Source of the DNA: a virus
Strand: one strand, 5' to 3'
IMG/VR virus record: IMGVR_UViG_3300045988_054624
Location: 1-50,810 of that record
DNA length: 50,810 nt
In this document: one piece after another, positions 2,616 to 48,625 of the stretch
Numbering within the stretch: position 1 is the first letter of the stretch
Layout of the letters: each line of letters opens with the position of its first letter
The notes under the pieces: generated by a model
Databases searched by the model: none
Told to the model about the DNA's origin: nothing
The model's input: only the letters and a program-made list of their open reading frames with translations
Program-made: the position numbers and the translations under genes

Positions 2616-2620
2616 TTCAT

Positions 2621-4300: not shown

Positions 4301-4301
4301 G

Positions 4302-5186: not shown

Positions 5187-5252
5187 TTCAATCTTTCGTT
5201 GTGAATAAGAGAGGGCGGCGTTACACCGCCCTCCCATTGTTACATGTTTCAC

Positions 5253-5741: not shown

Positions 5742-5764
5742 GTAACTTATTCCTTTCTTTGTAT

Positions 5765-7602: not shown

Positions 7603-7606
7603 CGTT

Positions 7607-8158
7607 TTATTCTCCCTTCGTTGCTTTGATGTCTTCGGCCAATTTTTTAATCCACTTGCATCCAGCTTCATGAGCGGCGTTAATGTCTTCATCGGTAATA
7701 TATCCCTTAGTCAACCCCACGTTGATGAATCCCATCTTTGCCTTGAGGTCTTCTTCCGTGATGTAAAACTTAACGTACAAGTTTGTTATGCCGAAAAAAA
7801 CAGCGTTATCTTTCCTGCTATGGTGTTGAGATACTCCAACAAAAGCTAATTTGTCGCAATTCGGGCGATTAGCGAAGATTGATGCGACAATGGGCATCAA
7901 ACCGTTAATCTCTTTGATTCTCTTAATGCCGAAGAACTCAAGCGTTTTGTCATAGCCTTGTCCCTTTTCAGTGGGTATATAATCAATGACGTTTTCGTCA
8001 TAGGTTTTCACTGAATAGGGAACCTTCTTCACCTCCACTTGTTTTTGCGCGGCTCGGTCATACTTCGGATTCCCCGCTGTTCCAAGGATGCTCAAGGTAG
8101 TACATCCACCGATAGCAAGGACAATCAGACTGCATGTAATAGTAACGGGCTTATTCAT
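7607..8158 (-). CDS. Lipoprotein (moron-like, with its own promoter)
   Basis: Signal peptide with lipobox LAIGGC; 183 aa; own sigma70-like promoter at 8211-8243. Confidence 0.55.
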   Translation of the reverse strand: MNKPVTITCSLIVLAIGGCTTLSILGTAGNPKYDRAAQKQVEVKKVPYSVKTYDENVIDYIPTEKGQGYDKTLEFFGIKRIKEINGLMPIVASIFANRPNCDKLAFVGVSQHHSRKDNAVFFGITNLYVKFYITEEDLKAKMGFINVGLTKGYITDEDINAAHEAGCKWIKKLAEDIKATKGE

Positions 8159-8210
8159 TTTTTTGTCTTTCTATTGTTTGGTTGATAGGTTTATAACCTC
8201 TCGTCGCTCA

Positions 8211-8243
8211 TCATATACAACTTTTTTTAGCCCCTTGTCAAAT
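8211..8243 (-). promoter_or_regulatory. Sigma70-like promoter for the lipoprotein gene
   Basis: Minus strand TTGACA-18 nt-TATATG, then a CA-rich SD-less leader before the ATG. Confidence 0.4.
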
Positions 8244-8256
8244 AATTTTTTACAGT

Positions 8257-10347: not shown

Positions 10348-10467
10348 AAGATACTTTTACCGGGTAAGTATCTAAAAAATATGTTATCAGCCTCTTTCGC
10401 AATAATCAAGACTAAATTACGTATTTTTTAGATACTTTCTAACTTTTTATGATATAATCAAGATACT
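10348..10467. promoter_or_regulatory. Lysogeny switch: four AAGATACTT operator half-sites/palindromes and divergent promoters
   Basis: AAGATACTT at 10348 and its reverse complement at 10365 form a palindrome; further copies at 10430 and 10460; extended -10 TGATATAAT at 10450-10458 reading toward the repressor. Confidence 0.55.
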
Positions 10468-10478
10468 ATGGAAGGTAG

Positions 10479-10874
10479 GTGATTTATTTGAGCGTTGGAG
10501 CAACTATAAAAAAGTTGCGTTTAGAGAAAGGACTGACGCAAGAGGAACTCGGAGAGTTGCTAGGAGTAAAGAAAGCCGCCATCCAGAAATATGAAAGCGG
10601 CCATGTACAAAATTTGAAACAAAGCACGATAAGAAGGCTTTGCGAGATATTCGACAAAACGCCTTCATACTTTGTCTATGATGATTATGAATCATCCTTA
10701 GAACACATGTTACGGTCTCAAGTAGGGATGATAGAATTGTTTCAAAGGGCTTACGGTAAAGACTTTATAGAACTGGTAGAAATATACCTAGAATTGAGTG
10801 ACCGGAATAAGGCGAAGGTTTTAGAGTACGCCAATGACATTTCACTGTTACAATCTGTTACGGGCAAAAAGTAA
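10479..10874 (+). CDS. cI-like XRE-family repressor
   Basis: N-terminal HTH LTQEELGELLGVKKAAIQKYESG plus a C-terminal oligomerisation region; 131 aa. Confidence 0.7.
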   Translation: MIYLSVGATIKKLRLEKGLTQEELGELLGVKKAAIQKYESGHVQNLKQSTIRRLCEIFDKTPSYFVYDDYESSLEHMLRSQVGMIELFQRAYGKDFIELVEIYLELSDRNKAKVLEYANDISLLQSVTGKK

Positions 10875-10898
10875 TGATTGTTAAACAGTTATGGAATA

Positions 10899-11104
10899 GT
10901 GTCACAGATGTAACAGATGTTTCCTATATATTTATTATTTTTCTCAATATGAAATAAGATGGGAATAGTTTTTTTTCACTTTTCATGTGAAAATGTAGGG
11001 GAATTGGAAGTGTTACATCTGTTACACTGTTACATCAGGCATGTAAATCTTTGAAAATCAAATGTTTTAAGGTGTCACAGATGAAGAAAGGGAAGTGTTA
11101 CACA
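10899..11104. repeat. Array of TGT(A/C)ACAGATG motifs (region A) between repressor and integrase
   Basis: gtgtcacagatgtaacagatg (10899-10919), gtgttacatctgttacactgttacatc (11010-11036), ggtgtcacagatg (11071-11083), gtgttacac (11096-11104); the same motif family as at 38995-39398. Confidence 0.6.
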
Positions 11105-12126
11105 TGCGCAACACAAACGGTTATGGAAGCGTTATCAAATTGAGCGGCAAACGCCGCCGCCCGTATGCCGTAAGAATTACCTCCGGATGGACTGATGACG
11201 GAAAACAGAAGTATAAATACATCAGTTACCATCAGAAAAAATCGGAAGCTTTGCTAGCATTGGCTGAGTTCAACCGTAACCCACACGATATTGATGCAGC
11301 GCGTATCACATTTGCGGAAGTCTATGACCGCTGGAGTGAAAAAGAGTTCCGTACCTTGTCAGACAGTTCAGCAAAAACGTATAGGAGTGCATATAAACAT
11401 TGTGCGCCTCTGTACGGGAAGGTATTCAAGGAACTTCGCACTCAACATCTACAATCGGTCATTACGTCCATCGAAGCACCATCCATGAAAGAAACAACTA
11501 AGTTCCTTTTTCAGAAGTCTTACCGCTTCGCACTTGAAAATGATATTGTACAGAAAGATTATTCGCAATTCGTGAAACTTCCTAAGAAACCACCAGCTAA
11601 GAAAAAGGTTCCGTTCACCCCGGAAGAAATCAATTACTTGTGGGAAAACAAGGACGCGATAAAATATGCGGATTTCACACTTATCTTGTTGTACACGGGC
11701 ATGCGGATTGGCGAGTTGCTAGCTATCAACAAATCAGACGTTAATCTTGAGAAACGGTATATGGTAGGTGGGTCTAAAACTGACGCCGGTAAAGAACGGA
11801 TTATCCCACTTCACAAGCGTATCGTGCCATTGCTGGAAAAACGGATGAATGAGGCGGAAAATGAGTGGTTGTTTCCAAACAAGCGAGGGTTGCGTTTGCA
11901 ATATTCACCGTTCATGAAATACCACTGGCCTAATCTGATGCAGGACATCAAAGGAGATCACACGCCCCATGATACCCGGCACACGTTCGTTTCCAACATG
12001 GATAGGTTAGGAGTTCGGAAGTTGAATATTCAAAGGATTGTTGGTCACAAAGACGCAGACGTAACGGAACATTACACGCACAAATTGATTGAGGAATTGA
12101 TTGCGGATGTAGATAGATTAGATTGA
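11104..12126 (+). CDS. int: Tyrosine integrase with N-terminal arm-DNA-binding domain
   Basis: C-terminal catalytic residues RHTFVS...HKD...HYTH; N-terminal AP2-like arm-binding domain (RRRPYAVRITSGW...). The track start at 11095 is GTG; the ATG at 11104 has an SD. Confidence 0.8.
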   Translation: MRNTNGYGSVIKLSGKRRRPYAVRITSGWTDDGKQKYKYISYHQKKSEALLALAEFNRNPHDIDAARITFAEVYDRWSEKEFRTLSDSSAKTYRSAYKHCAPLYGKVFKELRTQHLQSVITSIEAPSMKETTKFLFQKSYRFALENDIVQKDYSQFVKLPKKPPAKKKVPFTPEEINYLWENKDAIKYADFTLILLYTGMRIGELLAINKSDVNLEKRYMVGGSKTDAGKERIIPLHKRIVPLLEKRMNEAENEWLFPNKRGLRLQYSPFMKYHWPNLMQDIKGDHTPHDTRHTFVSNMDRLGVRKLNIQRIVGHKDADVTEHYTHKLIEELIADVDRLD

Positions 12127-12390
12127 TAAGTTGTAACTTGCTTGTATATTGTTTGTATATTACAGCGAAAAATTAAGCTGAATTTAGACGTTCTTATTTT
12201 TTCGCTTAATGATTCAAACCCTTGTAAACATTGGATTTACAGCATGTCCGAATCGTCTAAAAAATAACAATGATTCTTCCATCCCAAGCATGGACATACC
12301 TTGATTATCAATGTTTTACGAGCTATTTGTATATTGCGCGTATATTTTAATTCACCACCTCGTTTTTGTTATATTTTACCACAGCATAAG
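12127..12390. other. Candidate attP region
   Basis: Non-coding; three direct TTGTATATT repeats (12141, 12153, 12323); lies between int and the twin terminators that end the late operon. This is the usual int...lysin prophage end arrangement. Confidence 0.3.
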
Positions 12391-33947: not shown

Positions 33948-35327
33948 TTAATCAAACCCAATAAGAGAACCCCTTCCGATTTTATCGGCTATGCCCGTTG
34001 TAGCGTCCGGCGCGTCATCATGTGCGTTCTTCCCTTCTCGCTGGTACTTGCTCATTGCCTCATGGTATTCCGGCCAGCGGTCACGCCAGTTTGCCGGGAA
34101 ATAGACATGTTCCATTACCCAAGTAGCATTTGACAGAATACGGGCAATCTTATTGGTCCTCTGTGTAAACGGCCTGATAATTGTATAATTTGACTGCAAT
34201 TCATCCCGCATGATTCGTTCAATCGAACGAGCAAAGCCGCGCCCGCCGTTGTTGCTTTCAATGTCTGCCACGTTGACCTTGTCTTCAACGAACATTCTCG
34301 CTGTAGCGGGTTCGGTGATCTCCATCGGTTCTTTCGTGTACAAGATGTCCAGAACATAGGCTTCATTGGCGAATGTCACGCCATAATTGATTGAGCAATG
34401 GTAGTCTTCGCCGGTATCAGCCGTGTCCGTGTAATTCCGTATTTCCTTAAACTCCGGCAATGCTCCGTCATACGTTTTGAAGCTGCTGTACAAGCGGCCC
34501 TTGATGTCAATCGGCTCTTGCTGGTAGTTAGCCTTGACTATGTCAATGTTCATGTTTTTTGTTTTGAACGCATAGTCTTCTTCCGTCAGGATGTCTTCAC
34601 ACAACATTGAACCGTCATCTTGAACGGCCTTGTAATTGATATGTTCTACATCATCAAAGTTTTCCAAGACGTACCCGGCCAAGTCACCCGTCGCCCATCT
34701 GGTCATGATGATAATGAGCTTGAATCCGGTTTCCGTTCGGGAAAGCATGGTATTGTTGAACCAGTCAACTTGTTTTTGAAGTGTATTTTCGTTGTATGCT
34801 TCCTCAACGTTTTTGATTAGGTCGTCAATAATCATGATGGTACAACCGAACCCGGTTGCCGTACCGGTTGGAGAAGTAGCAAGATAGTTTGTTTGTTCAC
34901 TGCCAGCCAACGCCCACTTTGAAGCGGATGCCTCGCCCTTTTTTATCCTCGTGTTCGGGAAAATGTCATTGTACACCGTGATTCCCGGTGTTTTTTCTTC
35001 CGCAATCTTATCACGCACTTGTCGGGCAAAAGTAGATGACAGGGTCTCGTTGTATGAACCTGTCATCACTTTGTTTTTAGTGTCTTGTCCGAATAGCCAT
35101 TGCACGAGCAACGTTGCCGTCCGTGACTTCCCGTGACGAGGCGGCATGTTGACCACAAGCACTTTTTTATCTGATTCATAAAACCGTTGCAACGTATTGC
35201 AAAGGTCTTTTAGGAATGGCCTGTCTTCCTTGTAAAAGTCAGGCGCAACTAACTTGCAATACTCCCAAAACTCACGCTTTGAGAGTTCAATCTTGGCTAA
35301 CAAGGCAATTTCACTTGTCACAAGCAT
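33948..35327 (-). CDS. terL: Terminase large subunit
   Basis: 459 aa; Walker A NMPPRHGKS; C-terminal nuclease-domain acidic residues. Confidence 0.75.
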   Translation of the reverse strand: MLVTSEIALLAKIELSKREFWEYCKLVAPDFYKEDRPFLKDLCNTLQRFYESDKKVLVVNMPPRHGKSRTATLLVQWLFGQDTKNKVMTGSYNETLSSTFARQVRDKIAEEKTPGITVYNDIFPNTRIKKGEASASKWALAGSEQTNYLATSPTGTATGFGCTIMIIDDLIKNVEEAYNENTLQKQVDWFNNTMLSRTETGFKLIIIMTRWATGDLAGYVLENFDDVEHINYKAVQDDGSMLCEDILTEEDYAFKTKNMNIDIVKANYQQEPIDIKGRLYSSFKTYDGALPEFKEIRNYTDTADTGEDYHCSINYGVTFANEAYVLDILYTKEPMEITEPATARMFVEDKVNVADIESNNGGRGFARSIERIMRDELQSNYTIIRPFTQRTNKIARILSNATWVMEHVYFPANWRDRWPEYHEAMSKYQREGKNAHDDAPDATTGIADKIGRGSLIGFD

Positions 35328-35805
35328 TGGCGAGCTTCCTCAATTCTTCCGTTGTCAGTTGTGACAATGGACTTTCCCGCTTGTCTTCAACTTCAACAAA
35401 TGATTTTTCCTTCCAACCAAAACGGCATTTCAGAATGAATGCAATGGCTCCAACGTCAGGCGGGAACGTCTTAGTTGTGATTTTCTCCTTAACCGGAAAC
35501 TTAGGGTCATTCTCAATAACTTTCCCGTCCAGCTTGTACCGTTCAACCTGAACTTCCGTATCTTTGTAACCTACCGCCTTGCGGAATAAAGCATTGACAA
35601 GTTCCTTCTCTTGAAGTTCCAATCCTCCGCTCAATGCGGACTTAATTTCAGGACATTTATTCGCCCAGCGGTTTAACGTTGCCCTGCCAATCCCCATATT
35701 GGTAGCAATTTGAGTATCGCTAAGTCCTTTTCCTTTCCATTCCGTCAACTTAGCCAATCCTTCAGCGGATGTATAGTAGTCGTATATTTGCTTTGCTTTA
35801 GCCAT
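35311..35805 (-). CDS. terS: Terminase small subunit
   Basis: 164 aa; HTH IATNMGIGRATLNRWANK; directly upstream of terL. Confidence 0.55.
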   Translation of the reverse strand: MAKAKQIYDYYTSAEGLAKLTEWKGKGLSDTQIATNMGIGRATLNRWANKCPEIKSALSGGLELQEKELVNALFRKAVGYKDTEVQVERYKLDGKVIENDPKFPVKEKITTKTFPPDVGAIAFILKCRFGWKEKSFVEVEDKRESPLSQLTTEELRKLANACDK

Positions 35806-35843: not shown

Positions 35844-36356
35844 TCAATATTTTTTAATATCGTATGCTTTTGAATAAGCCGCAACTCCCCGCTGCATGAT
35901 ACGTAAAAAGTCCTCTCTTGAAAAGTCGGATAACCGATAAACTTCTTCCGGCTTCATTCCAAGCTGCTTTCCTATTTCCTTGACCGTCTTTCCGCTTGCA
36001 ATGAGGTTTTGAACAATAGCCTTCATTGGTTCAAGCTGGTGCGTTCCCCTTGCACGGTTGTGAGTAATGGTCCCGTACACGTCTTCCGCTTCGTCTTTGT
36101 GGTCTACTATGACAACGGGCACTTTTCCGTTGAGCTTGGTTTTCAGCGGTTCCCGTCCTGATACGGTCCAGCGGTGGAACCCGTCAATGATGGTAAAGTC
36201 TGGCCTAACAACAATCGGCAATGTCCATCCGTTAGTCAATATTGATTGAATAAGCAATTTGAGATTGTCTTCACTTACTACGTTAGGATTGTAATTATTC
36301 GCCTTCAAACGTGTTCGTTCAACTATTTGCACATTTGAGATTGGTTTTAATATCAT
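35844..36356 (-). CDS. IbrB/YbdM-like ParB-like nuclease-domain protein (copy 1)
   Basis: NYNPNVV...LLIQSILTNGWTLPIVV...IIDGFHRWT...KVPVVIVD...ITHNRARGTH; paralog of 41016..41534. Confidence 0.65.
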   Translation of the reverse strand: MILKPISNVQIVERTRLKANNYNPNVVSEDNLKLLIQSILTNGWTLPIVVRPDFTIIDGFHRWTVSGREPLKTKLNGKVPVVIVDHKDEAEDVYGTITHNRARGTHQLEPMKAIVQNLIASGKTVKEIGKQLGMKPEEVYRLSDFSREDFLRIMQRGVAAYSKAYDIKKY

Positions 36357-37441
36357 TTGTTCTTTCCTCCAAACACTTGAGCATACAAAGAACGGAAGGT
36401 TCGTTTTTTAGGGTCTCCACCAATCAAAGCTTGATAGACGACTTTATATGTTTTGTTATCCATGTACGAATTGTGCATCATGACAAACCGTTTATATTGT
36501 TTATAATTCATTTGTTGAGATGGCGTAGTGAATCGTTCGGGTTGATTGAATAATTCAAACACTTTTTCCTTGTAATCAGTATCATCTTTCCTTTGCTTCT
36601 TTCGACGGTAAAGCTCTGTATCAAAATACAACATTGCCATGTATGCGTTAGGTTCCCGCTTGCATATCTCGTTGAACAAGTCCGGGTAAAACTCGCACAT
36701 GTTGACGAGTGATCCTGCCGTGTCGATGCTGAAAAACTGCGATATTCGCATTCTGCCAAATCCTAAGCCGGTTCGGTACATGTGTTCATAGGCTATTGGA
36801 TATTCAAGCCCGTTGTCGGCTATGTACTTCCACACGTCCGTATCGGTCCAATCATAGATGGGATAGGCTTTAGCATGAATGGCCTGAAACACTGCAACGC
36901 CGTTCATTCTTTGAACACTCTCCGATACTCTAACGCCTATCATTTGAATCTTGTCTTTATTGACCCGCTCCATGAATGATTGATAGGTATCTTTCCTTGG
37001 TTTGAAAAGCGGGTGACTAGTGATTGCAAATGACGGCATATCTCTCACCCATACATCACGCTTGAACCTGTCCCAGCAAATGAAACTTTCATCATTTGTT
37101 AGAGCGTTAAAACAATTAAAATGTTTGCACTCAATCGCCCACCACCTGAACGGAACGCCTATGGACAACCATTGACGGCGAATATTCATCGTGACTTTTT
37201 CCACACATGGATAAATGGCTTCCTCGTCAATGAAATCCACTGTGAGAAGTGACTTGTCTATCTCTCCGCTCTGGCATAATTGAAAGACGAGATTGTTCAG
37301 GCAAATGCTATCCTTGCCACCTGAAACGCTTAATTGAACCGGTACGCCATTGGAAAAAATGTTTTTGATGCGCTGGCGTGCAGCGGTGACAACGTTAATG
37401 TCCGTGTAATGCTTTTTAATCAAGCGGTATGCACTCCCCAC
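36353..37441 (-). CDS. IbrA/YbdN-like PAPS-reductase-family PP-loop protein (copy A, divergent)
   Basis: PP-loop VSGGKDSICLNNL; 362 aa; Cys-rich central region. The same family as 39538..40671 and 41554..42840. Confidence 0.65.
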   Translation of the reverse strand: MGSAYRLIKKHYTDINVVTAARQRIKNIFSNGVPVQLSVSGGKDSICLNNLVFQLCQSGEIDKSLLTVDFIDEEAIYPCVEKVTMNIRRQWLSIGVPFRWWAIECKHFNCFNALTNDESFICWDRFKRDVWVRDMPSFAITSHPLFKPRKDTYQSFMERVNKDKIQMIGVRVSESVQRMNGVAVFQAIHAKAYPIYDWTDTDVWKYIADNGLEYPIAYEHMYRTGLGFGRMRISQFFSIDTAGSLVNMCEFYPDLFNEICKREPNAYMAMLYFDTELYRRKKQRKDDTDYKEKVFELFNQPERFTTPSQQMNYKQYKRFVMMHNSYMDNKTYKVVYQALIGGDPKKRTFRSLYAQVFGGKNK

Positions 37442-38003
37442 ATGACGGGCAAAGGATTGTGTTGACCGCTGCTGGTTCTGGCGGTGCTTCTTCCTGCGTT
37501 TCTTCCGATATGGGATTTCCCATATCTATAACTTGTTTAGTTTGTTTTGTTTGCACCGTTTCAGGAGTTAGAACGCCATAACTTTGAACGTCCTGCAACA
37601 CTTCTTCCGCATCTCGCATCAAGTTACGCAATACATCCTCGCTGAATCCAGCAACGTCAAAATCTCCTGTTGATGTAATTTCCGCTAGGTAGGTTTCGAT
37701 ATTTTCATAATCATCCGAACCAAGGGAATAAGTCTTGTTATCAGCCAGAATGAGCTTTTTCTTTTCAATGTCAGACAATCCGGATTTTCTATAGACCGCC
37801 GCATCTTTCATTCCCGCTCTCGTCATAGCTTCATGTAATCCATTGCCTATTAAGATATTATTATCTTCATCAATGACGATTGCCCGTGTTTGTCCAAACT
37901 GTTCAAGCGAGCGTATCAACTCTTTGATTTGTGTTTCCGTGTGCTTCCTCACATTCACCTCTAATGGTTTAAGGTCAGTTAGTTGTAATGTTTGAATGTT
38001 CAC
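37416..38003 (-). CDS. ParB N-terminal-domain-like nuclease with C-terminal zinc ribbon
   Basis: LKPLEVNVRKHTETQIKELIRSLEQFGQTRAIVIDEDNNILIGNGLHEA; C-terminal CPSCGEC. Confidence 0.55.
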   Translation of the reverse strand: MNIQTLQLTDLKPLEVNVRKHTETQIKELIRSLEQFGQTRAIVIDEDNNILIGNGLHEAMTRAGMKDAAVYRKSGLSDIEKKKLILADNKTYSLGSDDYENIETYLAEITSTGDFDVAGFSEDVLRNLMRDAEEVLQDVQSYGVLTPETVQTKQTKQVIDMGNPISEETQEEAPPEPAAVNTILCPSCGECIPLD

Positions 38004-38901
38004 GTTTCTTCCACCCTTTCAATGCAAAAAATAGAACTCCTACACAGAATGCAACACGGTAAATGCCTATTGTGCTCCAAAGCTCCACGATACCGATTTC
38101 TTTGAACACGCCCCAAAAGACGCATAGGAATACGGCAAGTAAAGTGCCAACACGCTTGTTGGCTACCTCGTGCATGGCAACGGCTATGCTGTCAATGGTA
38201 GAAGTCGTAACGGCCAGACATGCAACTAGTAAAAGTGCATTCATCAATCCGTTGAACTCGAACAGGCTCATGATGAAAATTAGAAACATGTACGCTCCGA
38301 AAAACGCCGTAGCATACCAGAACGGTTTGTTATCTTCGGCTAACTTGGCACGCTGCCACATTTGAATATCTCCGAATGGAGATGTAAGCAAGATACAAGC
38401 ACTCCACAAGGCCCACAAGATACCGCCGTCCGTAGTGACAACGTGCTTATGTATTTCCGCTCCTGAAAAAAGACCTGCTAGGATAATAACCGCAAGCGTC
38501 ACAAAAGTAATGATGCCTTGATACTTGTCAGTAAGAACGGATGTCAATAATCCTTTTTTGTACATGAGAAGGATAAAAAGCAATCCGATACACGTTGTTA
38601 TCCAGTAGTTTCCGATAATCTGATTCATGATATTGAGGTTGATAATCAGGCAGAACGCTTGAATGATGACGGCAAACGTTTTGAAAATCTTATTCTGGAA
38701 TAGATTTTCGGTGAACAATCCACGCTTGAAAAGCACACCGAACAATCCTAGCGTCAATGCGTTAGCAATGGCCCAAATGAGGAATGGAACGATACCACGT
38801 TCGATAGCGATTGATTGACCGATAACAAGTGATGAAGCCCAAGCCCAACTGAAAGCGATAGAAAGACCTAGAGAGAAAGATTTGTTCAAAAAAACATGCA
38901 C
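37975..38901 (-). CDS. Polytopic membrane protein (possible transporter)
   Basis: 308 aa with about 8-9 hydrophobic helices; the first gene downstream of the operator-controlled promoter at 38934-38958. Confidence 0.45.
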   Translation of the reverse strand: MHVFLNKSFSLGLSIAFSWAWASSLVIGQSIAIERGIVPFLIWAIANALTLGLFGVLFKRGLFTENLFQNKIFKTFAVIIQAFCLIINLNIMNQIIGNYWITTCIGLLFILLMYKKGLLTSVLTDKYQGIITFVTLAVIILAGLFSGAEIHKHVVTTDGGILWALWSACILLTSPFGDIQMWQRAKLAEDNKPFWYATAFFGAYMFLIFIMSLFEFNGLMNALLLVACLAVTTSTIDSIAVAMHEVANKRVGTLLAVFLCVFWGVFKEIGIVELWSTIGIYRVAFCVGVLFFALKGWKKREHSNITTN

Positions 38902-38933
38902 TCCTTTTTTTATAATGAATCCTTTGTATCAAC

Positions 38934-38991
38934 ATTATATCATAATAATAAGATACTTATGAAGAAAAAGGAGCGCAAAAAGATACTTTTT
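38934..38991 (-). promoter_or_regulatory. Repressor-operator-controlled leftward promoter
   Basis: Minus-strand extended -10 TGATATAAT (plus 38934-38942), identical to the repressor promoter -10; AAGATACTT operator copies at 38950-38958 and 38982-38990. Confidence 0.5.
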
Positions 38992-38994
38992 AAG

Positions 38995-39398
38995 GTGTAA
39001 CAGATGTAACAGATTAGGGTGGAATCATCTGTTACAGTAGATAAGGAAATAAAAATGAATGGGTTATAGTAAGAAAACGGTTGTGAAGTGTAACAGATGA
39101 GAAAATCATCTGTTACACCCTTAAAGCGTTAAATATTAGCGGATTGCGAAGAGGTGTAACGCATGTAACAGATAAAATGTATATATTTTCTTATTATATA
39201 TACATATATAAAAATATATAGAAATAATATTTTACTATATATAAATTATTTACATTAACTCTATAAAATATATAAGTAAGAAAGAAATAAGTGTTACATG
39301 TGTGACAGCATGAGATAACACTATGGTTTTTAATAAGTTAAAGGTGTAACAGATTGAAAAAACAATCTGTTACACATCTGTTACATCTGTTACACCTG
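38995..39398. repeat. Iteron/palindrome hub (region B): TGTAACAGAT(G) arrays flanking a TA-rich tract
   Basis: gtgtaacagatgtaacagat (38995) with an inverted partner atcatctgttacag (39023); perfect palindrome GTGTAACAGATGA-gaaaa-TCATCTGTTACAC (39088-39118); ggtgtaacgcatgtaacagat (39153); a 115-nt TA-rich tract (39175-39290); gtgttacatgtgtgacag (39291); GGTGTAACAGATTG-aaaaaa-CAATCTGTTACAC plus two more CATCTGTTACA copies (39343-39398). Confidence 0.7.
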
Positions 39399-39438
39399 CT
39401 GGAAAACGAGGGTTTTTTGCTTCGAGTGGATGATACGG

Positions 39439-39519
39439 TTTTCTAAAATTGCCCGTTTTTAGCCTAGGGGATGGCCCTAGAACGGGCTTTTACACCTCGT
39501 CCGGTACAAACTACCGGAC
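39439..39519 (-). terminator. Tandem hairpins/terminator downstream of IbrA-like copy B
   Basis: GCCCGTTTTTAGCCTAGGGGATGGCCCTAGAACGGGC followed on the minus strand by a U-rich stretch; a second stem GTCCGGTACAAACTACCGGAC. Confidence 0.45.
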
Positions 39520-39537
39520 AACATGTAAAACGCCTTT

Positions 39538-40671
39538 TTAGGCCCATTCTAGGCATGAAATATCAACCTTGCCTTGAGAGAACCCCAAACCCTTGCATGC
39601 GAAGTCATTTGTCAAAATGCACTTGCACACTCTTCTCCAAGACGGAACATCCCGTTTTTTCTCCATGAAATAATCTGCCTCGTCCGGTATTCCATCAGGA
39701 TAACCTTGACGTTTCCACTTGGAAACAAACTCGGTGATCTTCCTCCGGTAATTATCCCGTGCTTGTGGAAAACTCGTTTCGACGAGAAAGACGGCATATT
39801 GCTCCCATGTGAAATGACTAGGTTTCGTCAGGTTCTTAAACGCAACCGCTGAAGTTCCTCCGTAAATCCTGCCAAAGTTCACGCCATTGACGCGATTGAG
39901 CAACTTGCTCCACGTTTGAGGTTCAATTACCCTGTACAGTTTCAGATTGTTCAAGCCGCACGTGTGAAACGGATTCGCAACACGCATTTGATTGATTGTT
40001 AGTCCAGCCTTGTAAAACAAGTCATAAATGCAGTTGTAGTCCCATGCCATTTTCGCATTTGCCACCCACACATCAGACGTTTTCCAATCGTAGATAGGAT
40101 AAACCTTGTGAGCCTGTTTATCCTTGCCTACAATCCAGTCCACCATTCTAATTAACTTTTGACGCTCAAGGCTCTCTTCGGCTCGAATGCCAATCATGAC
40201 GGCGGTTTTCCCGTATTGACCGGCAAACCAGTCGCAAAAGTCATCCTGAACGGAATAATCTTGTTTTCCAACTTCAACGGCGAATGGACAATTATCCTCA
40301 TGTATCACATAAGGAAGTTTTGGTATCGTTCTGCACCACAGGGCCTTGTCTGGCTTGTGCCACGGAATCCAAACGGAATTGTCCATCTTGCAACCGCAAT
40401 TTGCACCAACCGGAAGACAAAGCCAGAAGCGGCGAATGTCGTTGAACCGTTCAAATGTTCGTGTAACGTAATCCGTTGTGTAACTGTATTGCGCTTCATA
40501 GTCCATATGGTACATTGCCAGTTTGTGAAGGAATCCATTTTCCTTCGCAAAATCATAGCAAAGATTAAGTAAAACACCGCTATCTTTTCCACCTGAAAAG
40601 CTTACAAGTACAGAATCGTATTCATTAAAAATCAAAGAAAGTCTGTTTAAGGCGGCTTGGTAAACGTTCAT
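39538..40671 (-). CDS. IbrA/YbdN-like PAPS-reductase-family PP-loop protein (copy B)
   Basis: PP-loop VSFSGGKDSGVLLNL; LAMYHMDYEAQY..TTDYVT; WLCLPVGANCGCKM...WIPW; close paralog of 41554..42840. Confidence 0.7.
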   Translation of the reverse strand: MNVYQAALNRLSLIFNEYDSVLVSFSGGKDSGVLLNLCYDFAKENGFLHKLAMYHMDYEAQYSYTTDYVTRTFERFNDIRRFWLCLPVGANCGCKMDNSVWIPWHKPDKALWCRTIPKLPYVIHEDNCPFAVEVGKQDYSVQDDFCDWFAGQYGKTAVMIGIRAEESLERQKLIRMVDWIVGKDKQAHKVYPIYDWKTSDVWVANAKMAWDYNCIYDLFYKAGLTINQMRVANPFHTCGLNNLKLYRVIEPQTWSKLLNRVNGVNFGRIYGGTSAVAFKNLTKPSHFTWEQYAVFLVETSFPQARDNYRRKITEFVSKWKRQGYPDGIPDEADYFMEKKRDVPSWRRVCKCILTNDFACKGLGFSQGKVDISCLEWA

Positions 40672-41023
40672 CTTCCCATTCTTCTATAATTTGTTGAGCA
40701 ATAGCATTAGCGGTGTTACGTTCGTCATCGGATAGCAGCCACCATGCTTCCCGGGTCTCGTCTTCTTTCACTCCGGCATAAAGGCAACACGCAGCTTGCC
40801 CCAGCCATGCCTTACGATTGACATTGACATTTGAAAAAACTTGTTCTGTTGATATTTTCCATCGTTTTTTAACTTCACGCATCCATCGTTGGCAAATGTC
40901 CGGTGAGGATAAGAGAGAGCGGGCCAGTTCTACACGGCCAGCCCGCCCCTCGTTTAATTCATCATACATTCCGCATTTGTAATCCTCCCATTCTTCGTAA
41001 TGATGAAATACTTGTTTAATCAT
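40625..41023 (-). CDS. Hypothetical protein inside the IbrAB-like array
   Basis: 132-aa ORF between IbrB-like copy 3 and IbrA-like copy B. Confidence 0.3.
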   Translation of the reverse strand: MIKQVFHHYEEWEDYKCGMYDELNEGRAGRVELARSLLSSPDICQRWMREVKKRWKISTEQVFSNVNVNRKAWLGQAACCLYAGVKEDETREAWWLLSDDERNTANAIAQQIIEEWEDERLPSRLKQTFFDF

Positions 41024-41534
41024 TTTCAGTTTCCCACGCTTGAGAAAATTCCTTGTCTTTGAACAATGAAGCTAATCCGGTTATTTGTTTCAGCCGCAAC
41101 AACTCTTCCGCATCCATGCCGATATTTTTCAGAATCCACGCATCCGACATGCCAGCCTCCACCAGTTCACCTACGATGTTGCTCATGAGTTCGATGGAAT
41201 GAGAACCACGGGCGCGGTTGTGCCGGATCGTCGAGGCCATTCGGTTTGAAATGTCCTTATCAATGACCACCACGGGCAGCTTACCGCCTTCACGGTCATA
41301 AATGTCCTGATGTGTCTTCATAATGGTGTAACGGTGGAAGCCGTCAACAATCTCATACTTGCCATTCTCCAGCTTGTAGCAGACAATCGGCATCGTATAG
41401 CCGTCTTCCAAAATGGACTTGTAGAGCAGCTTCATTTCCGGAGGTGCAACGCTGTTAGGGTTGTATGAGTTCGCCTGAATGTCTTCCAGAGGTACGGCGA
41501 TTACGTTATATACGGGGCTTGTAATGGTATTCAT
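41016..41534 (-). CDS. IbrB/YbdM-like ParB-like nuclease-domain protein (copy 3)
   Basis: SYNPNSV...LLYKSILEDGYTMPIV...IVDGFHRYT...KLPVVVID...IRHNRARGSH. Confidence 0.65.
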   Translation of the reverse strand: MNTITSPVYNVIAVPLEDIQANSYNPNSVAPPEMKLLYKSILEDGYTMPIVCYKLENGKYEIVDGFHRYTIMKTHQDIYDREGGKLPVVVIDKDISNRMASTIRHNRARGSHSIELMSNIVGELVEAGMSDAWILKNIGMDAEELLRLKQITGLASLFKDKEFSQAWETEND

Positions 41535-41553
41535 ATTCGTGTTGTGTTGTAGG

Positions 41554-42840
41554 TTAGAGGTTTTTGTATTTTTCGAGTGCTTTTTTTCGTTTAACTAATG
41601 CTTCTTTCGTAAATCCGAATCCTGCATATTTGCAGTAGTAATCATTTTTCAAGATACAAATGCACATGCGCTTGTATGAAATAACCGTTGAAAAACAATC
41701 AACGTCCATATCATCCGGAACATCCGAGAACGCAACAATTGAGCGGTCGTCATACTTTTCAGATGGCTTGATATATTGAGCATGATTTGACGCATTCAAA
41801 ACGTCCTGTAAATCTTTTGTCGGGAGAGTGCCACCCTTGCTCCAATACTCTATTGACCGCCGCATGACATCTTGATAATGCTCCGCAACATCTTTGTTGA
41901 GAGTAGTTAAAAGAAACTCATAGTATGATTTCCACGTGTGACCTTTCGGTAACGTGATTGACTTCCAGCCCATTGCCGTAGTGCCTCCGTAAAGTCCGGT
42001 GAAATTGGCTCCATTGACACGGCTGACGAGTTTCCCCCATGTGTTAGGCTCAATAATTTTATAGAGTTTCAACGATGCAGTAGCGCAATCGTTGAACGGG
42101 CTTGCTACCCGCATTTGATCCGGCGTTAATCCAGCTTGATAATACAGGTCATAGAGTTTGTTGTACTCAAATCCAAACTTGGCATTGGCAATCCAAACAT
42201 CATCTACCATCCAATCATAAATCGGATAGCATTTCAACGGGCTTCTGTCTCCTACGATGTAATGAGTTCCCTTGTATTTATTGACTTTACGTTGTCCGGC
42301 AATGGCTGAATAACGATGCAAGCTTTCATCCGCACGAATGCCAATCATGACACCAGTTGAACCATATTCCCGGTTGAACCATTTGCAGAATCTGTCTTGA
42401 ACTTGATAATCCGTTTCGCCTTCGTTCATGGTAAACGGGCAATTATCTTCATTCACCACATATTCAAACGCTGGCATTTCCCTGCACCAGATGCCACGGT
42501 CTTCTTTTTTCCAAGGTATCCACAAGCCGGAGTTCATATTACAGGCGCATTGAGCACCCACAGGCAGGCATAGCCAAAATCGCTTGATGTCATCAAAGCG
42601 GGCAAATGTGTTTGTCACATAGTCCGTTGTCATCTGATATTGTGCCTCATAATCAATGTGGTACATGGCTAGCTTATCAAGCAATCCATGTTCCTTTGCG
42701 TATTTGTAGCACAAGTTCAACATGACCGAGCTATCTTTACCGCCGCTGAACGCAACCAGCACGTTTTCAAACTCGCTGAAACAGAACGCGATACGTTCCA
42801 TTGCGGCATCATAGACGTTTTTTTCTATGTAGTTCTTCAT
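41554..42840 (-). CDS. IbrA/YbdN-like PAPS-reductase-family PP-loop protein (copy C)
   Basis: PP-loop VAFSGGKDSSVMLNL; WLCLPVGAQCACNM...WIPW; 428 aa. Confidence 0.7.
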   Translation of the reverse strand: MKNYIEKNVYDAAMERIAFCFSEFENVLVAFSGGKDSSVMLNLCYKYAKEHGLLDKLAMYHIDYEAQYQMTTDYVTNTFARFDDIKRFWLCLPVGAQCACNMNSGLWIPWKKEDRGIWCREMPAFEYVVNEDNCPFTMNEGETDYQVQDRFCKWFNREYGSTGVMIGIRADESLHRYSAIAGQRKVNKYKGTHYIVGDRSPLKCYPIYDWMVDDVWIANAKFGFEYNKLYDLYYQAGLTPDQMRVASPFNDCATASLKLYKIIEPNTWGKLVSRVNGANFTGLYGGTTAMGWKSITLPKGHTWKSYYEFLLTTLNKDVAEHYQDVMRRSIEYWSKGGTLPTKDLQDVLNASNHAQYIKPSEKYDDRSIVAFSDVPDDMDVDCFSTVISYKRMCICILKNDYYCKYAGFGFTKEALVKRKKALEKYKNL

Positions 42841-44006
42841 AAGTCTTTTATGGTTAAGTTTCCTTGCTTTTTGAAGTGATTGACGAGGGATTCTTTCTTA
42901 GAAATACATTCATCTATCATTCTTTCAAGTCCTACGTCTCCTGTTAGGTCAAAGTATTCACAATCAAGCGTTTGACCGTTTCGGTAGATACGCCCTTCTG
43001 ATTGTTCCCGGAATGAGTAGTCAAATGTTTTGTCAAAGTAAATGATGCGGTTATATCGTTGAAGATTAAGGCCAAAGGAACCTTTTCCGTACGTCAGAAC
43101 AACTGCATCCGGGTATCTCCGTTGAACTTCATTCCGGCTATCAATGTACTTGCAGAACACGATTGATTTATCCGTCAGAAGTTCATCTAGGATTTCCCAT
43201 TTTTCGGACGAAAGGCAATAGGAATGTTGAAGTTTTGAAAAGATAGCCAGTAAGTTTTCTTCTTCGTTACGGTTAATGTATTCATAGAATAGACAAGCTT
43301 TAAGGTTCCTGTATGCTTCATTTTCTTCCCAAGTCATATTCCAATAGCGGACGTGATACTTCTTTTCAACTTTCAATTCCAGATTGCATTGAAACACATA
43401 GGGTTTCACAAGTGAAAGAAGGTGATCGACATTCGCATATCCGGTGATAATCGTTTTGGTAACTCGTCCACCTCTTTTGTGTTGTGTGTAAGTGCAATAG
43501 CGGTCCCGGAATCGGTAAAAAGTGTAAGGCAGGATTTTAGGGGAAAGGAATTGCATTTGAGCGTAAATATCACAAATGTTTTTCGTCACCGGCGTACCGT
43601 TCAGAATGAGCTTGTATTCCGCGAATCGTCCTAGGTGCACGATGCGTTGCGTGCGCTTGGCTCTCATGTTTTTGATTTTAATTGATTCATCCGCAACCAT
43701 GAAAACCCGTTTGAATTGTTTGACGTACTCTAATTCTTCAAGGTAGATACGGTCACTACATCCGATTGATTCGATGCCCATGATGTGAGCCTTGTACTTG
43801 CATCCGCATTTTTCAAGCTCGGTTTCAAGAGTTTCCTTGACTTGGCACGGACAAAGCCAGTAGAGGCAATCCACATCCGGCACGGAGTTAATCAGGGCAA
43901 CCGCCGTTTGAGTTTTACCGGTGCCGCAAGCCATGAAGAGTGCGCCAACCTTGAGGCGTTGCAACTTTTCAATGGCTTGCTGCTGGTTGATGGTTAAATC
44001 TCGCAT
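42837..44006 (-). CDS. SNF2/DEAD-like SF2 helicase (second copy)
   Basis: Walker A ACGTGKTQT; DESI box (MVADESIKIKN); LNGTPV; C-terminal FGLNLQRYNRIIYF...GRIYRNGQ, parallel to the helicase at 8257..9582. Confidence 0.6.
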   Translation of the reverse strand: MRDLTINQQQAIEKLQRLKVGALFMACGTGKTQTAVALINSVPDVDCLYWLCPCQVKETLETELEKCGCKYKAHIMGIESIGCSDRIYLEELEYVKQFKRVFMVADESIKIKNMRAKRTQRIVHLGRFAEYKLILNGTPVTKNICDIYAQMQFLSPKILPYTFYRFRDRYCTYTQHKRGGRVTKTIITGYANVDHLLSLVKPYVFQCNLELKVEKKYHVRYWNMTWEENEAYRNLKACLFYEYINRNEEENLLAIFSKLQHSYCLSSEKWEILDELLTDKSIVFCKYIDSRNEVQRRYPDAVVLTYGKGSFGLNLQRYNRIIYFDKTFDYSFREQSEGRIYRNGQTLDCEYFDLTGDVGLERMIDECISKKESLVNHFKKQGNLTIKDL

Positions 44007-45533: not shown

Positions 45534-45869
45534 TTACCTTTGCAGAACCTTGCACCGTTTCAATATCTCCTTCGGAACCAGAAAGATAACTTCATCGTCT
45601 ATGCCATCTTTATAGGAAACGACTACTGGAACAAAATTCATGCAATCGAACAAATTACAAGTTACTTCATCGTCCGACATGCAAGCTACTGTTTGAGCAG
45701 GTAGGGAATCCATCAAAAGCTTCCTAGCTTCCCGCAGTTGTCCAACATACAGAGAGATGTCATATTGGCATCCTTGTACAAGCCCATTATCCGTATCTTC
45801 TAACAATTCGTTTATATCCATAGTCTTATTTCTGTTCGAGTTCCCACGGCCATTCAGAAACATCTTCAT
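45534..45869 (-). CDS. Hypothetical protein
   Basis: 111-aa ORF followed by an intrinsic terminator. Confidence 0.35.
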   Translation of the reverse strand: MKMFLNGRGNSNRNKTMDINELLEDTDNGLVQGCQYDISLYVGQLREARKLLMDSLPAQTVACMSDDEVTCNLFDCMNFVPVVVSYKDGIDDEVIFLVPKEILKRCKVLQR

Positions 45870-46182
45870 ATTTGAATTGTTCTAATTCATTTGTTTTAAG
45901 ACAAATACCGAAAAACGTTGATTCATTTCTATAAATCTCTGTTACTCGGAAATAATGATAGCCCGAATTACTTTCGTTTACTACTAGTTCATCCCCTATT
46001 TGCAACCGCATGATTGGCGGGAACTTGGAGACAAGCTCATTCCAAGCCTCTGCGGCTTCTTGGGGCGTGAATTGCCGCAGGGCACACAAGCCACATTGAG
46101 TACAAATATATTGGTATCCTTGAGGTATTATATCGAGGAATGTTCTTTTACTCCCGCAGATAGGACATTTAAGCTTTTTCAT
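45826..46182 (-). CDS. Zinc-ribbon protein
   Basis: CPICGSKRTF...CTQCGLC; probable start MKKLKCPICG (the track start at 46299 overlaps the upstream gene). Confidence 0.4.
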   Translation of the reverse strand: MKKLKCPICGSKRTFLDIIPQGYQYICTQCGLCALRQFTPQEAAEAWNELVSKFPPIMRLQIGDELVVNESNSGYHYFRVTEIYRNESTFFGICLKTNELEQFKYEDVSEWPWELEQK

Positions 46183-46477
46183 TGTTCCTTCCTTTCTGTT
46201 TCGCAATGAGTTCTTCAAACTTTCTATTGGCGTCATCTTCGCTCCGGTATGTCCATCCGAACACTCCCCAATCAGAAGTACTAGGAAGCCGTTCATCACC
46301 GGTCATTTGTCCGGTTAAAGCGTTATCTTTTTTCATTGTGCGGAGCACTACAACTTCAAACGCCTTGTAGTTATTTTTTTCCTGTTTGTAAACAGCAACG
46401 TTCCCTTCTCTCCTGATTAGTTGATGGTGAAAACCTTGCCTAGTGTATAGTTCACGTATTGCTTTCATGACATTCAA
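46169..46477 (-). CDS. Hypothetical protein
   Basis: 102-aa ORF. Confidence 0.35.
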   Translation of the reverse strand: MNVMKAIRELYTRQGFHHQLIRREGNVAVYKQEKNNYKAFEVVVLRTMKKDNALTGQMTGDERLPSTSDWGVFGWTYRSEDDANRKFEELIAKQKGRNNEKA

Positions 46478-47800: not shown

Positions 47801-48625
47801 TTAGATTATTCTTCCGCTGAATGTTTGTTTAGTGGTAACTAATACCGAACCCCTATGAATTCGGTTGTCAGGCAGGGCCTTGCGTAGTTTTTCATCAATA
47901 TCCTTAATTGCGTTACGTTCCGGAATATCCGGTCTAATCATTTGATAGACAAAGAACAAATGACCGTCATTCAAGCGCACACGTAACCGCACCTTGATTT
48001 CATAGGTGGTATCTTCTTCCGCACCCTGAATGACTGGAATTGCTATAGTAAACTCCGTAGGAACGTTTAATTCTCCGCTCTTGGATTCCTGCGTTTCGTT
48101 GTAGGTCAGCTTGGTTTCCCCGTCGCTGGCACGATAGGCAGATTTGAACTCAACCTTGCGGTGCATATCAAACTTGCTCGCCAACGTAAGCATTTCAGAT
48201 GCGGACGGTTTGACAATATCCTTGCTATTCTCTTCGAGGAACTCAACAAACTCTCTTTGAGACAGGCGGGAACCGTTCAACTCATTCCAGTTATTCCATT
48301 CAACCGTTTTTTGGAGTGCCATTTTCGCATAATGGTCCATCCATCCGGATTCTTCCGCCCCGGAATAATAATTGAACACTGCATGAACACATGAATTGCT
48401 CACGTAAATAACGCTCTTGACTTTGTTTTCATCGTCTTCCGCTTTGACGTGTTCAATCAACGTATCCAAGTCGAGTAGTTGAATACCGCATGCCTTTCGG
48501 TCCGGGTACTCATTCAAGTTCCTAAGATGGTGCAATTCATAACCTTCCGGCACGATTGCGGCGGTTCCGTTTCCTACTTCCTGCACACGCAGTGCAGCTA
48601 ATGTTTCTTCGTTTAGACTATCCAT
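47801..48625 (-). CDS. Hypothetical early protein (274 aa)
   Basis: ORF with an SD-less CA-rich leader; no motif recognised with confidence. Confidence 0.4.
   Translation of the reverse strand: MDSLNEETLAALRVQEVGNGTAAIVPEGYELHHLRNLNEYPDRKACGIQLLDLDTLIEHVKAEDDENKVKSVIYVSNSCVHAVFNYYSGAEESGWMDHYAKMALQKTVEWNNWNELNGSRLSQREFVEFLEENSKDIVKPSASEMLTLASKFDMHRKVEFKSAYRASDGETKLTYNETQESKSGELNVPTEFTIAIPVIQGAEEDTTYEIKVRLRVRLNDGHLFFVYQMIRPDIPERNAIKDIDEKLRKALPDNRIHRGSVLVTTKQTFSGRII

Follow-up and report, generated by a model that had tools for sequence, protein, structure and literature searches.

Pairs of genes for a PP-loop protein, IbrA, and a small ParB-like protein, IbrB, are already known by name, as are the gene families to which they belong. 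The pair YbdN/YbdM (IbrA/IbrB) of Escherichia coli consists of a protein with PAPS_reduct and DUF3440 domains beside a ParB_N protein, and annotated pairs of PHROG 2302 and PHROG 2159 occur in phages of Streptococcus, Lactobacillus, Flavobacterium, and Faecalibacterium. The literature on IbrA/IbrB, DUF3440, and ybdN/ybdM holds mentions at the level of annotation, in which no mechanism was found. The same two folds, a PP-loop ATP pyrophosphatase and a ParB/DGxHR protein, are combined in the Dnd (DndB/DndC) and Ssp (SspB/SspD) systems, and in the Dpd system the ParB-like ATPase DpdB assists the DNA-modifying DpdA, with precursor salvage through YhhQ (PMC12839542). Here we describe an array of nine genes at positions 35844-44006, minus strand, of IMGVR_UViG_3300045988_054624, a temperate tailed gut-phage genome of 50,810 nucleotides, the whole of which is called the window in the following. 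The array contains three IbrA-like genes, two IbrB-like genes, a gene for a ParB-N-like protein (ParBN), one for a membrane protein, one for a small protein (orf132), and one for an SNF2-like ATPase. Like the E. coli pair, IbrA1 and IbrA2 carry PAPS_reduct and DUF3440 and are encoded beside a ParB_N protein, and the IbrA and IbrB proteins of the array fall into the same two PHROGs as the annotated phage pairs. Compared to the simple pair, however, the array additionally has the SNF2 protein, orf132, ParBN, and a transporter, and its IbrA3 has no Pfam-detectable DUF3440. The array consists of two transcription units from three module types and is not one pair repeated three times. As the best explanation we tentatively propose an ATP-dependent covalent modification of phage DNA before packaging, which in the second unit would use an imported substrate.

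A preliminary description of this DNA had listed the open reading frames (ORFs), all of which were recovered on the minus strand at the coordinates given below, and had seen in them the IbrA/IbrB pair in triplicate. Three IbrA genes are indeed present, but there are only two IbrB genes, and the genes are spread over three architectures and two transcription units. Module 1 has the order helicase-IbrA1-IbrB1-orf132-IbrA2 and Module 2 the order transporter-ParBN-IbrA3-IbrB2. Neighboring genes of the same unit overlap or directly adjoin each other, as would suit co-translation, and a gap of 640 bp without coding sequence (38902-39537) lies between IbrA2 and the membrane-protein gene. The stack of three architectures with three IbrA and two IbrB genes is found in this single genome. 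A single copy is present in all deposited phage records that matched, 226 and 223 in number (the 226 being those found with IbrA1 by tblastn, one copy each), and exactly one full-length IbrA is present, within 10-kb flanks, in each of 80 IMG/VR loci of the IbrA1/2 type. The same phage was also found in a Logan assembly (L020), with identical array order and 93-100% protein identity. The earlier proposal of multi-component systems instead of single accessory genes agrees well with our neighborhood surveys, in which the three module types are recurrent and tightly conserved.

The first gene of Module 1 encodes an SNF2-like ATPase/helicase of superfamily 2 (42837-44006, minus strand, 389 amino acids). 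Its assignment to the SNF2 family, already made before, was confirmed by the N-lobe domain PF00176 (1.4e-10, 41.2 bits, cut-off 24.9) together with motifs I, II, and VI, which are readable in the translation as GTGKT, DESI, and QSEGRIYRNGQ. PHROG 62 is matched with 3e-62, and Helicase_C reaches 19.3 bits, under its cut-off of 23.5. The stop of the helicase gene and the start of IbrA1 (41554-42840) overlap by 4 nt, and IbrB1 (41016-41534) comes next. With the same order, similar gene sizes, and overlapping genes, these three correspond to a trio in the dairy and rumen Firmicutes phages CR28 and phiAQ113 (Lactobacillus) and CHPC877 and Pika (Streptococcus), to which the identity is 36-45% for the helicase, 46-50% for IbrA, and 70-76% for IbrB; a helicase of ~390 amino acids directly precedes IbrA-IbrB in CR28, Pika, and CHPC877. 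In the dairy and rumen phages the trio stands alone after the lysis genes, whereas in the array orf132 and a second IbrA come after it, and the packaging genes lie downstream. The small protein orf132 (40625-41023, minus strand) belongs to an uncharacterized family of 697 clusters at 50% identity (E<=1e-3) with the conserved motifs WE..GMY, NR.AWLGQAA.C, and TR.AW, and no Pfam or PDB match was obtained for it. The last gene of the module is IbrA2 (39538-40671).

The partners of IbrA were surveyed by tblastn in the 80 IMG/VR loci. Like those of the second survey described below, these loci are the best matches to the queries, many of them from metagenome 3300045988; ORF calling was mechanical, and neighbors were classed by blastp against a small query set. 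Helicase and IbrB were found in 21 of the 80 loci, and IbrB together with an orf132 homolog adjoining IbrA in 49, which makes orf132 a real and recurrent partner of IbrA/IbrB. Seven loci have IbrB alone, three have neither IbrB nor another partner nearby, and none has helicase and orf132 together. Helicase and orf132 are thus mutually exclusive partners, the exception being this phage lineage. The closest relatives of IbrA1, IbrB1, and the array helicase are all found in helicase-type modules, with 70-83% identity for IbrB1. IbrA2 has IbrA1 as its nearest relative, followed by IbrAs of the helicase type (type I) with 41-43% identity, so that its membership in the orf132-type modules was ruled out. 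Judged from these relationships, Module 1 is best interpreted as a trio of the helicase type with two additions, an orf132 gene and a diverged duplicate of IbrA. Many orf132-type modules (L025, L027, L042-L063) contain a separate ORF of ~60 amino acids (e.g., L025 5216-5413), which is homologous to residues ~305-370 of IbrA2 at the C-terminal end of DUF3440. A second SNF2-like helicase of the window (8257-9582, 441 amino acids) is part of the replication module and falls into PHROG 62 like the one of the array.

Module 2 begins with the membrane protein (37975-38901, minus strand, 308 amino acids), which had been noted before as a putative transporter. It is polytopic, and its AlphaFold2 (AF2) model (pLDDT 89.5) retrieved AdiC, ApcT, LAT1, CHT1, and DUR3 in a Foldseek search against the PDB, with TMq up to 0.68 and a best E of 5e-4. 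The Pfam scan of the window protein gave no match, including PF00474, but among its 194 homologs longer ones of 24-29% identity in the same cassette slot match PF00474 (SSF) with 1e-19 to 1e-20. The protein is therefore predicted to be a short, SSF-related secondary transporter with LeuT fold. It is followed by ParBN (37416-38003), IbrA3 (36353-37441), and IbrB2 (35844-36356), the last gene before terS, which starts 38 nt downstream. Among 600 IMG/VR candidates at least 527 IbrA3-type stretches were confirmed, and 82 IbrA3-type loci were surveyed, i.e., the 80 best of IMG/VR and two from other assemblies. A ParBN homolog lies directly upstream of IbrA3 in 78 of the 82, and an IbrB homolog directly downstream in 66 and within two genes in three more; the IbrB2 homologs are 66-88% identical and are the best conserved component. 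Upstream sequence of 3.5 kb or more was available for 65 loci, of which 63 have a transporter upstream of IbrA3 and two could not be resolved. In 59 of the 65 the transporter is an SSF/LeuT homolog, and in four (L116, L120, L136, L140) it is an ABC permease with an NMT1/SsuA-like binding protein, which is nearest to sulfonate/taurine binders but below the family cut-offs. The transporter is a near-obligate part of the IbrA3 cassette. A PAPS_reduct PP-loop gene is present upstream in 32 of the 65 loci, mostly encoding a protein of ~265 amino acids between transporter and ParBN (WSAGKDS, PF01507; e.g., L121 6588-7403, L143 6420-7217, L140 6603-7409, and ~30 other loci), which is absent from the window. 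After IbrB usually terS and terL of several types follow, and most of the 82 loci have them directly after the cassette.

Module 2 thus belongs to a widespread and conserved type of cassette that occurs in at least several hundred phage contigs and that, as far as we found, has been annotated but never discussed. A cultured example is the Faecalibacterium phage FP_Taranis, whose gp35-gp38 encode a transporter, a ParB-like protein, IbrA, and IbrB in the same order. As in the window, these genes open the late region; the gene of a RinA-like activator precedes them, and terS/terL follow. IbrA3 is 37% identical to the IbrA of FP_Taranis, which has no Module 1; gp35-38 are annotated, but the paper describing the phage makes no mention of them. 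In the relative L004 the 10 kb upstream of Module 2 are free of Module 1 genes, and an IbrA1 homolog (P0307) of the same contig evidently lies elsewhere. The contigs of L004 and L005 (3300045988_155456 and _118791) stop 200-270 bp past IbrB2, where terS is expected, which may reflect a physical end of the genome (pac or cos) in those relatives. Small antitoxin/toxin-like pairs are located just upstream of the transporter in L004 (9000-9550), L005 (9390-9570), and L010 (9435-9966); the L010 pair is RelB with ParE/YafQ by Pfam, the other two were read from sequence only. This slot looks like a hotspot for insertions. More distant transporter homologs (45-49%) were seen in L010-L013 and L017-L019 in a trio of radical SAM, Vut_1 (YhhQ-like), and transporter genes, which follows tail-fiber genes in L017 and L018; no IbrA/IbrB genes are near the trio in these seven loci.

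IbrA1 (428 amino acids) and IbrA2 (377 amino acids) have the two domains that define IbrA, a PP-loop domain of PAPS-reductase fold (PF01507) and DUF3440 (PF11922). DUF3440 of IbrA1 has an E-value of 8e-72, with 241 bits for PF11922 and 49 bits for PF01507 (cut-offs 25 and 22.5); for IbrA2 the values are 7e-46 with 157 bits and 48 bits, respectively, and PHROG 2302 is matched with 5e-89. IbrA3 (362 amino acids) has PF01507 alone (2e-9), and the Pfam scan gave no match to PF11922, so that the combination of PAPS_reduct and DUF3440 expected for all three proteins was found in two of them. Since it matches PHROG 2302 from end to end (6e-75), IbrA3 is treated as a divergent IbrA subfamily. Identity to IbrA1 is 54% for IbrA2, which shares with it the motifs previously quoted for the two paralogs, 32% for the more divergent IbrA3, and 24% for a solo PAPS-reductase-family protein of the replication module. 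The alignment of these four PP-loop proteins, suggested earlier, revealed SGGKDS as invariant. IbrA1/2-type proteins have the conserved cysteines C91, C98, C100, C252, C393, C395, and C403, and IbrA3-type proteins have their own, different set of seven; IbrA1-3 have no C-terminal Cys motif of the PAPS-reductase family, and GCxxC is present in the solo protein but not in them. IbrA2 retains SGGKDS and the cysteines of IbrA1. Across dozens of homologs, PP-loop, subfamily-specific cysteines, and ParB motifs are kept, and a pseudogenization of the array copies, which had been considered, is not indicated by their sequences. Homologs are numerous, with at least 8000 protein clusters at 90% identity for IbrA1 and 2532 clusters for IbrA3. 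A PDB sequence search gave nothing useful for IbrA1, ParBN, or orf132, whereas the structural model of IbrA1 resembles enzymes of adenylyl transfer and of the PP-loop type, among them TilS and TtuA, which modify nucleic acids.

The two IbrB proteins, small ParB_N proteins beside IbrA, consist of a ParB N-domain and a helix-turn-helix (HTH). IbrB1 (172 amino acids) matches PF02195 with 5e-7 and 30.1 bits and IbrB2 (170 amino acids) with 4e-6 and 27.2 bits (cut-off 26.3), and PHROG 2159 is matched with 2e-81 and 3e-69, respectively. They are paralogous, as had been recognized, with 42% identity and invariant DGFHR and HNRARG. The family profile has ParB/Spo0J (4umk) as best match with 2.7e-8, covering the NTP-binding N-domain and the HTH, followed by Noc and other ParB CTPases. 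A role as partition proteins is not indicated, as the ParB-like proteins reach 23.7-31.3 bits with the partition ParB model TIGR00180 (cut-off 58.45), and no ParA-like match was found among the window proteins scanned. ParBN (195 amino acids) is the third ParB protein, formerly described as a ParB-N-domain nuclease with a zinc ribbon. The ParB-N-like part of this description holds (PHROG 620, 1e-41; no Pfam match), but the zinc ribbon is a single C-terminal CPxCGE knuckle, preceded by an acidic linker. Besides CPxCGE, the motifs NVRxH and KKKLxLADNK are conserved, and ParBN also matches the ParB domain at the N-terminus of DNA methyltransferases from phages (PHROG 498, 1e-26; PADLOC MTase_II, 3e-10).

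The gap between the modules contains several elements. At the 3' end of IbrA2 a terminator-like, strongly structured hairpin element (39440-39560, minus strand) has an RNA fold of -54.2 kcal/mol (z = -7.0 vs. shuffles) with inverted-repeat arms of 36 nt, and it has no clean U-tract and no Rfam match; a canonical terminator is found at the equivalent position before Module 2 in L004 and L005. Ten exact TGTAACAGAT iterons (38996-39394) are arranged symmetrically around an AT-rich core (39175-39290). With up to one mismatch TGTAACAGAT occurs 15 times in the window, compared to 3.6 expected, and none of 100 shuffles reaches 15. The sole other cluster (10853-11082, two exact and three one-mismatch copies) likewise surrounds an AT-rich stretch and is located between the genes for repressor and integrase. 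In L016, the closest relative, the iteron element is present with the variant word TGTTACACTTG, but it is absent from L004 and L005, and in more distant relatives a terminator, a promoter, and a RelB/ParE-like pair take the place of the iterons. The iterons might serve as an origin, as an SPP1-like pac site, as a site of a shared regulator, or for the loading of ParB. They are unlikely to be arm sites of the integrase, since separate TTGTATATT repeats (12140-12350) are present downstream of int, where attP is usually found, and these are more likely the attP arm-type sites. A promoter-like site for Module 2 (38934-38988, minus strand) consists of TTCATA, an 18-nt spacer, and TG-TATAAT, i.e., 10 of 12 matches with an extended -10, and carries two operator-like words. 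Exactly three exact copies of AAGATACTT exist in the window, two of which flank this promoter (38950-38988), and the third lies at 10348 in the cro/repressor switch region (10348-10468), together with three near copies, which suggests a shared operator. The preliminary description had put the whole array under such a repressor-operator-controlled promoter. Going by its position and sequence, this is plausible for the downstream unit from the transporter to IbrB2, and the promoter probably also serves the late genes, but it does not apply to the helicase-IbrA1 part.

With these parts at hand a DNA modification can be envisaged as follows. Each version would be built on IbrA as ATP-using PP-loop enzyme and on IbrB as ParB-like, HTH-bearing DNA-binding NTPase. 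IbrB, in Module 2 together with ParBN, would bind the phage DNA and position IbrA, which would use ATP to adenylate a base carbonyl or a phosphate group of the DNA; the adenylate would then be displaced by a nucleophile, so that a covalent modification is left. In Module 1 the SNF2 motor would give access to the DNA, with orf132 replacing the helicase in other phages, and in Module 2 the added group or its precursor would be a small molecule imported by the transporter of the cassette. Module 1 would be read with early or middle genes, whereas Module 2 would open the late operon just before the terminase genes, so that replicated DNA would be marked before packaging, probably to evade restriction or other DNA-targeting defenses of the host. 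Gene content, domain and fold assignments, intact motifs, and conserved neighborhoods are observed, and from this anatomy we infer the DNA substrate, the chemistry of adenylation and subsequent substitution, the imported donor, and the anti-defense benefit. The SNF2 translocase, the ParB/HTH protein, and the methyltransferase-type ParB domain point to DNA as the object of the reaction, with which the position of Module 2 at the head of the late operon, ahead of the terminase genes, agrees. An ATP-dependent adenylation with subsequent substitution is suggested by the PP-loop fold, and the invariant SGGKDS and conserved cysteines of IbrA1-3 also speak for the proposed mechanism. The near-obligate transporter, which is of two unrelated and interchangeable types, suggests that import of a donor or precursor is part of the function of Module 2. 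It is this combination of DNA-directed partners, PP-loop chemistry, and transporter that favors covalent DNA modification before packaging. In the slot before the terminase genes phages commonly encode ParB-methyltransferase fusions. The logic is similar to the 7-deazaguanine modification by Dpd, where a ParB-like NTPase aids a DNA-modifying enzyme and the precursor is importable, and the distant transporter homologs adjoining Vut_1/YhhQ-family and radical SAM genes in other phages provide a further link. In contrast to Dpd, IbrA is a PP-loop enzyme, QueC models match marginally, and no DpdA transglycosylase was found among the array proteins or the surveyed cassettes. A more specific and somewhat unlikely version would be that the transporter-(PAPS_reduct)-ParBN-IbrA3-IbrB cassette is a new DNA hypermodification pathway, in which the imported molecule is attached by PP-loop adenylation before packaging, the helicase- and orf132-type modules being transporter-less relatives with an endogenous donor, and the three modules stacked here providing layered protection.

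Several points weigh against DNA modification. For none of the phages with IbrA/IbrB does the literature searched report a modified base or backbone, and a candidate gene for a transferase or for donor synthesis is not evident. FAD synthase, CysD, and CysH, whose folds come closest to that of IbrA, have small molecules and not DNA as substrates, and in profile comparison IbrB weakly resembles the ParB-fold small-molecule kinases SbnI and SerK. No riboswitch that would have revealed the imported ligand was found by Rfam in the window, in the gap at relaxed threshold, or in nine Module 2 loci. The survey frequencies are biased by the best-match sampling and by the many loci from one metagenome. 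The only phenotype known to have been published is reportedly transcriptional, namely the activation of eib prophage genes, after which IbrA and IbrB were reportedly named.

This phenotype leads to a second reading, in which IbrA and IbrB would be transcriptional co-activators or anti-silencers. IbrB would load on DNA like KorB/VirB and switch on (late) phage genes, with IbrA as cofactor-producing or regulatory partner. The database label of IbrA/IbrB is "co-activator of prophage gene expression", the ParB N-domain and HTH of IbrB would suit a regulator, Module 2 heads the late operon and in FP_Taranis adjoins the RinA-like activator, and the iteron arrays lie beside the Module 2 promoter and the int promoter. 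However, a regulator needs no invariant PP-loop enzyme, no second PAPS_reduct protein, no SNF2 motor, and no near-obligate transporter of two alternative types; moreover, the iterons are absent from relatives with the whole cassette, and phages with the cassette can also encode a dedicated late activator. We regard a regulatory role as unlikely.

About as improbable is a small-molecule pathway, in which the transporter would import a metabolite, IbrB with its ParB/Srx fold would phosphorylate it like the serine kinases SbnI and SerK, and IbrA would adenylylate it like FAD synthase and CysD, resulting in an activated compound or in the depletion of a host or signaling metabolite for host takeover or anti-defense. 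The LicB/LicA/LicC choline pathway is a parallel case of transporter, kinase, and nucleotidyltransferase. The best structural neighbors of IbrA are adenylyltransferases for small phosphate or sulfate acceptors, DGxHRY is common to IbrB and SbnI, to which the weak profile matches of SbnI and SerK can be added, and both the near-obligate transporter and the frequent extra PAPS_reduct enzyme would find a place in such a pathway. Against it, the IbrB profile matches ParB/Spo0J with 2.7e-8 and the kinases with 6e-3, and an HTH is present; the SNF2 helicase partner and the methyltransferase-type domain of ParBN point to DNA, and the Module 1 types have no transporter.

Phosphorothioation of DNA, with IbrA as DndC/SspD-type sulfurtransferase and IbrB as DndB/SspB, had been suggested by the parallel to Dnd and Ssp drawn before, which turned out to be a resemblance at the level of folds, with the DndC, SspD, BrxP, and CysH models all far below their thresholds. 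IbrA1 reaches 22.3 bits with the DndC model TIGR03183 (cut-off 290.4), where IbrA2 and IbrA3 are not listed, and the DndC matches in PADLOC are partial, with 23-31 bits; the weak PADLOC/NCBIfam DndC matches of IbrA1 and IbrA2 (E 4e-8 to 7e-6) may nevertheless be counted in favor, as may the shared folds, the conserved cysteines of IbrA, and the alternative ABC transporter with its closeness to sulfonate/taurine binding proteins, whose SsuA-family match is under its cut-off. SspD of PADLOC matched, partially, the solo PAPS reductase only (5.9e-12) and left IbrA1-3 unmatched. The matches to BrxP, the PAPS reductase of type 4 BREX, span ~90-190 positions of a model of 779, with 1e-24 for the solo protein, 4e-8 for IbrA2, and at least 2e-4 for IbrA1 and IbrA3. 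DndC has a 4Fe-4S cluster on three cysteines and a distinct Cys dyad (PMC10853773), and IbrA has two different patterns of conserved cysteines, one in the IbrA1/2 type and another in the IbrA3 type. Among the nine array proteins and the solo PAPS reductase no DndA, DndD, or DndE (Pfam, PADLOC, PHROG, NCBIfam), no cysteine desulfurase, and no SspA, SspB, or SspC was found, nor PglZ or BrxC among the proteins scanned. Dnd partners were also absent from the replication and immunity region as searched with PHROGs only and from the upstream early genes as searched with Pfam only, and the neighborhood surveys revealed no such partners by Pfam labels for a few loci and by blastp against our own query set for the rest. 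The array has a helicase nearby as in BREX and Pbe-type systems, but different from Dnd, Ssp, and BREX it consists of phage genes heading the late operon, and its Module 2 has a transporter. Phosphorothioation is thus poorly supported and very unlikely. Auxiliary sulfur metabolism, i.e., a cysH-like PAPS/APS reduction boosting host sulfur assimilation during infection, as the Pfam/PHROG labels "PAPS reductase" and "auxiliary metabolic gene" and the SsuA-like binding proteins of some cassettes might suggest, is extremely improbable, since the CysH/PAPS-reductase equivalog models give 20-24 bits for IbrA1-3 (and 40-70 bits for the solo protein) at cut-offs of 154-254, the C-terminal Cys motif of the family is lacking in IbrA1-3, and obligate ParB-like partners, helicase, and pre-terminase position do not fit sulfur assimilation.

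The solo PAPS-reductase-family gene (4302-5252, or 4302-5186 from an internal ATG, minus strand) adjoins the DNA polymerase gene, as had been observed, and lies between it and the gene for the single-stranded DNA-binding protein (SSB). Its product matches PF01507 (8e-31) and PHROG 424 (5e-61), besides the partial match to BrxP. It is not part of the array but possibly linked to it, as a 36%-identical homolog lies directly upstream of the ABC-type Module 2 in L120 (2467-3522), and the solo-type subfamily may therefore be functionally linked to the Module 2 cassette. Its identity with the ~265-amino-acid PAPS_reduct protein of other cassettes was ruled out (E 0.18).

Nearly all transcription of the phage genome is on the minus strand. 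The replication genes (732-9582) encode primase, DNA polymerase, the solo PAPS reductase, SSB, an exonuclease/Sak4 fusion, and the SNF2-like helicase mentioned above. An HTH repressor (10479-10874) and a tyrosine integrase (11095-12126) are encoded on the plus strand. Lysis and structural genes follow the integrase and run up to terL (33948-35327), which is followed by terS (35311-35805) and the array, and beyond position 44006 small early genes are found. Among these genes upstream of the array are an ORF with a zinc ribbon (45826-46299), whose match to Lar (restriction alleviation) is below threshold, and a gene for a DUF2303 protein (47801-48625). Megablast with the array and half of the window gave no DNA-level match to deposited phages, which means that a close cultured relative is lacking. 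The TerL proteins of Fusobacterium and Clostridia phages share 57-63% identity with that of the window, and this similarity points loosely to phages of Clostridia or Fusobacteria. The host labels of relatives derived from metagenome-assembled genomes (Rikenellaceae, Spyradenecus, Sutterella, Desulfovibrio, Clostridia) are mutually inconsistent and were dropped as binning noise.

IbrA and IbrB are among the commonest phage genes that are annotated but not understood, and they are routinely mislabeled as auxiliary metabolic genes of sulfur metabolism or as partition proteins. What appears to be new is the stack of three architectures in one genome, the mutual exclusivity of helicase and orf132, and the transporter-linked cassette as a unit. 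The family thereby gains a testable structure of three fixed architectures, with the SNF2 and the 132-amino-acid protein as mutually exclusive partners and a transporter-bearing cassette that heads the late operon. Among cultured phages, FP_Taranis offers access to the transporter cassette, and CHPC877, CR28, and Pika offer access to the helicase type. If DNA modification from an imported compound is true, this would add a new class to the DNA chemistry of phages and would bear on the evasion of restriction, on sequencing artifacts in gut viromes, and on enzyme tools.

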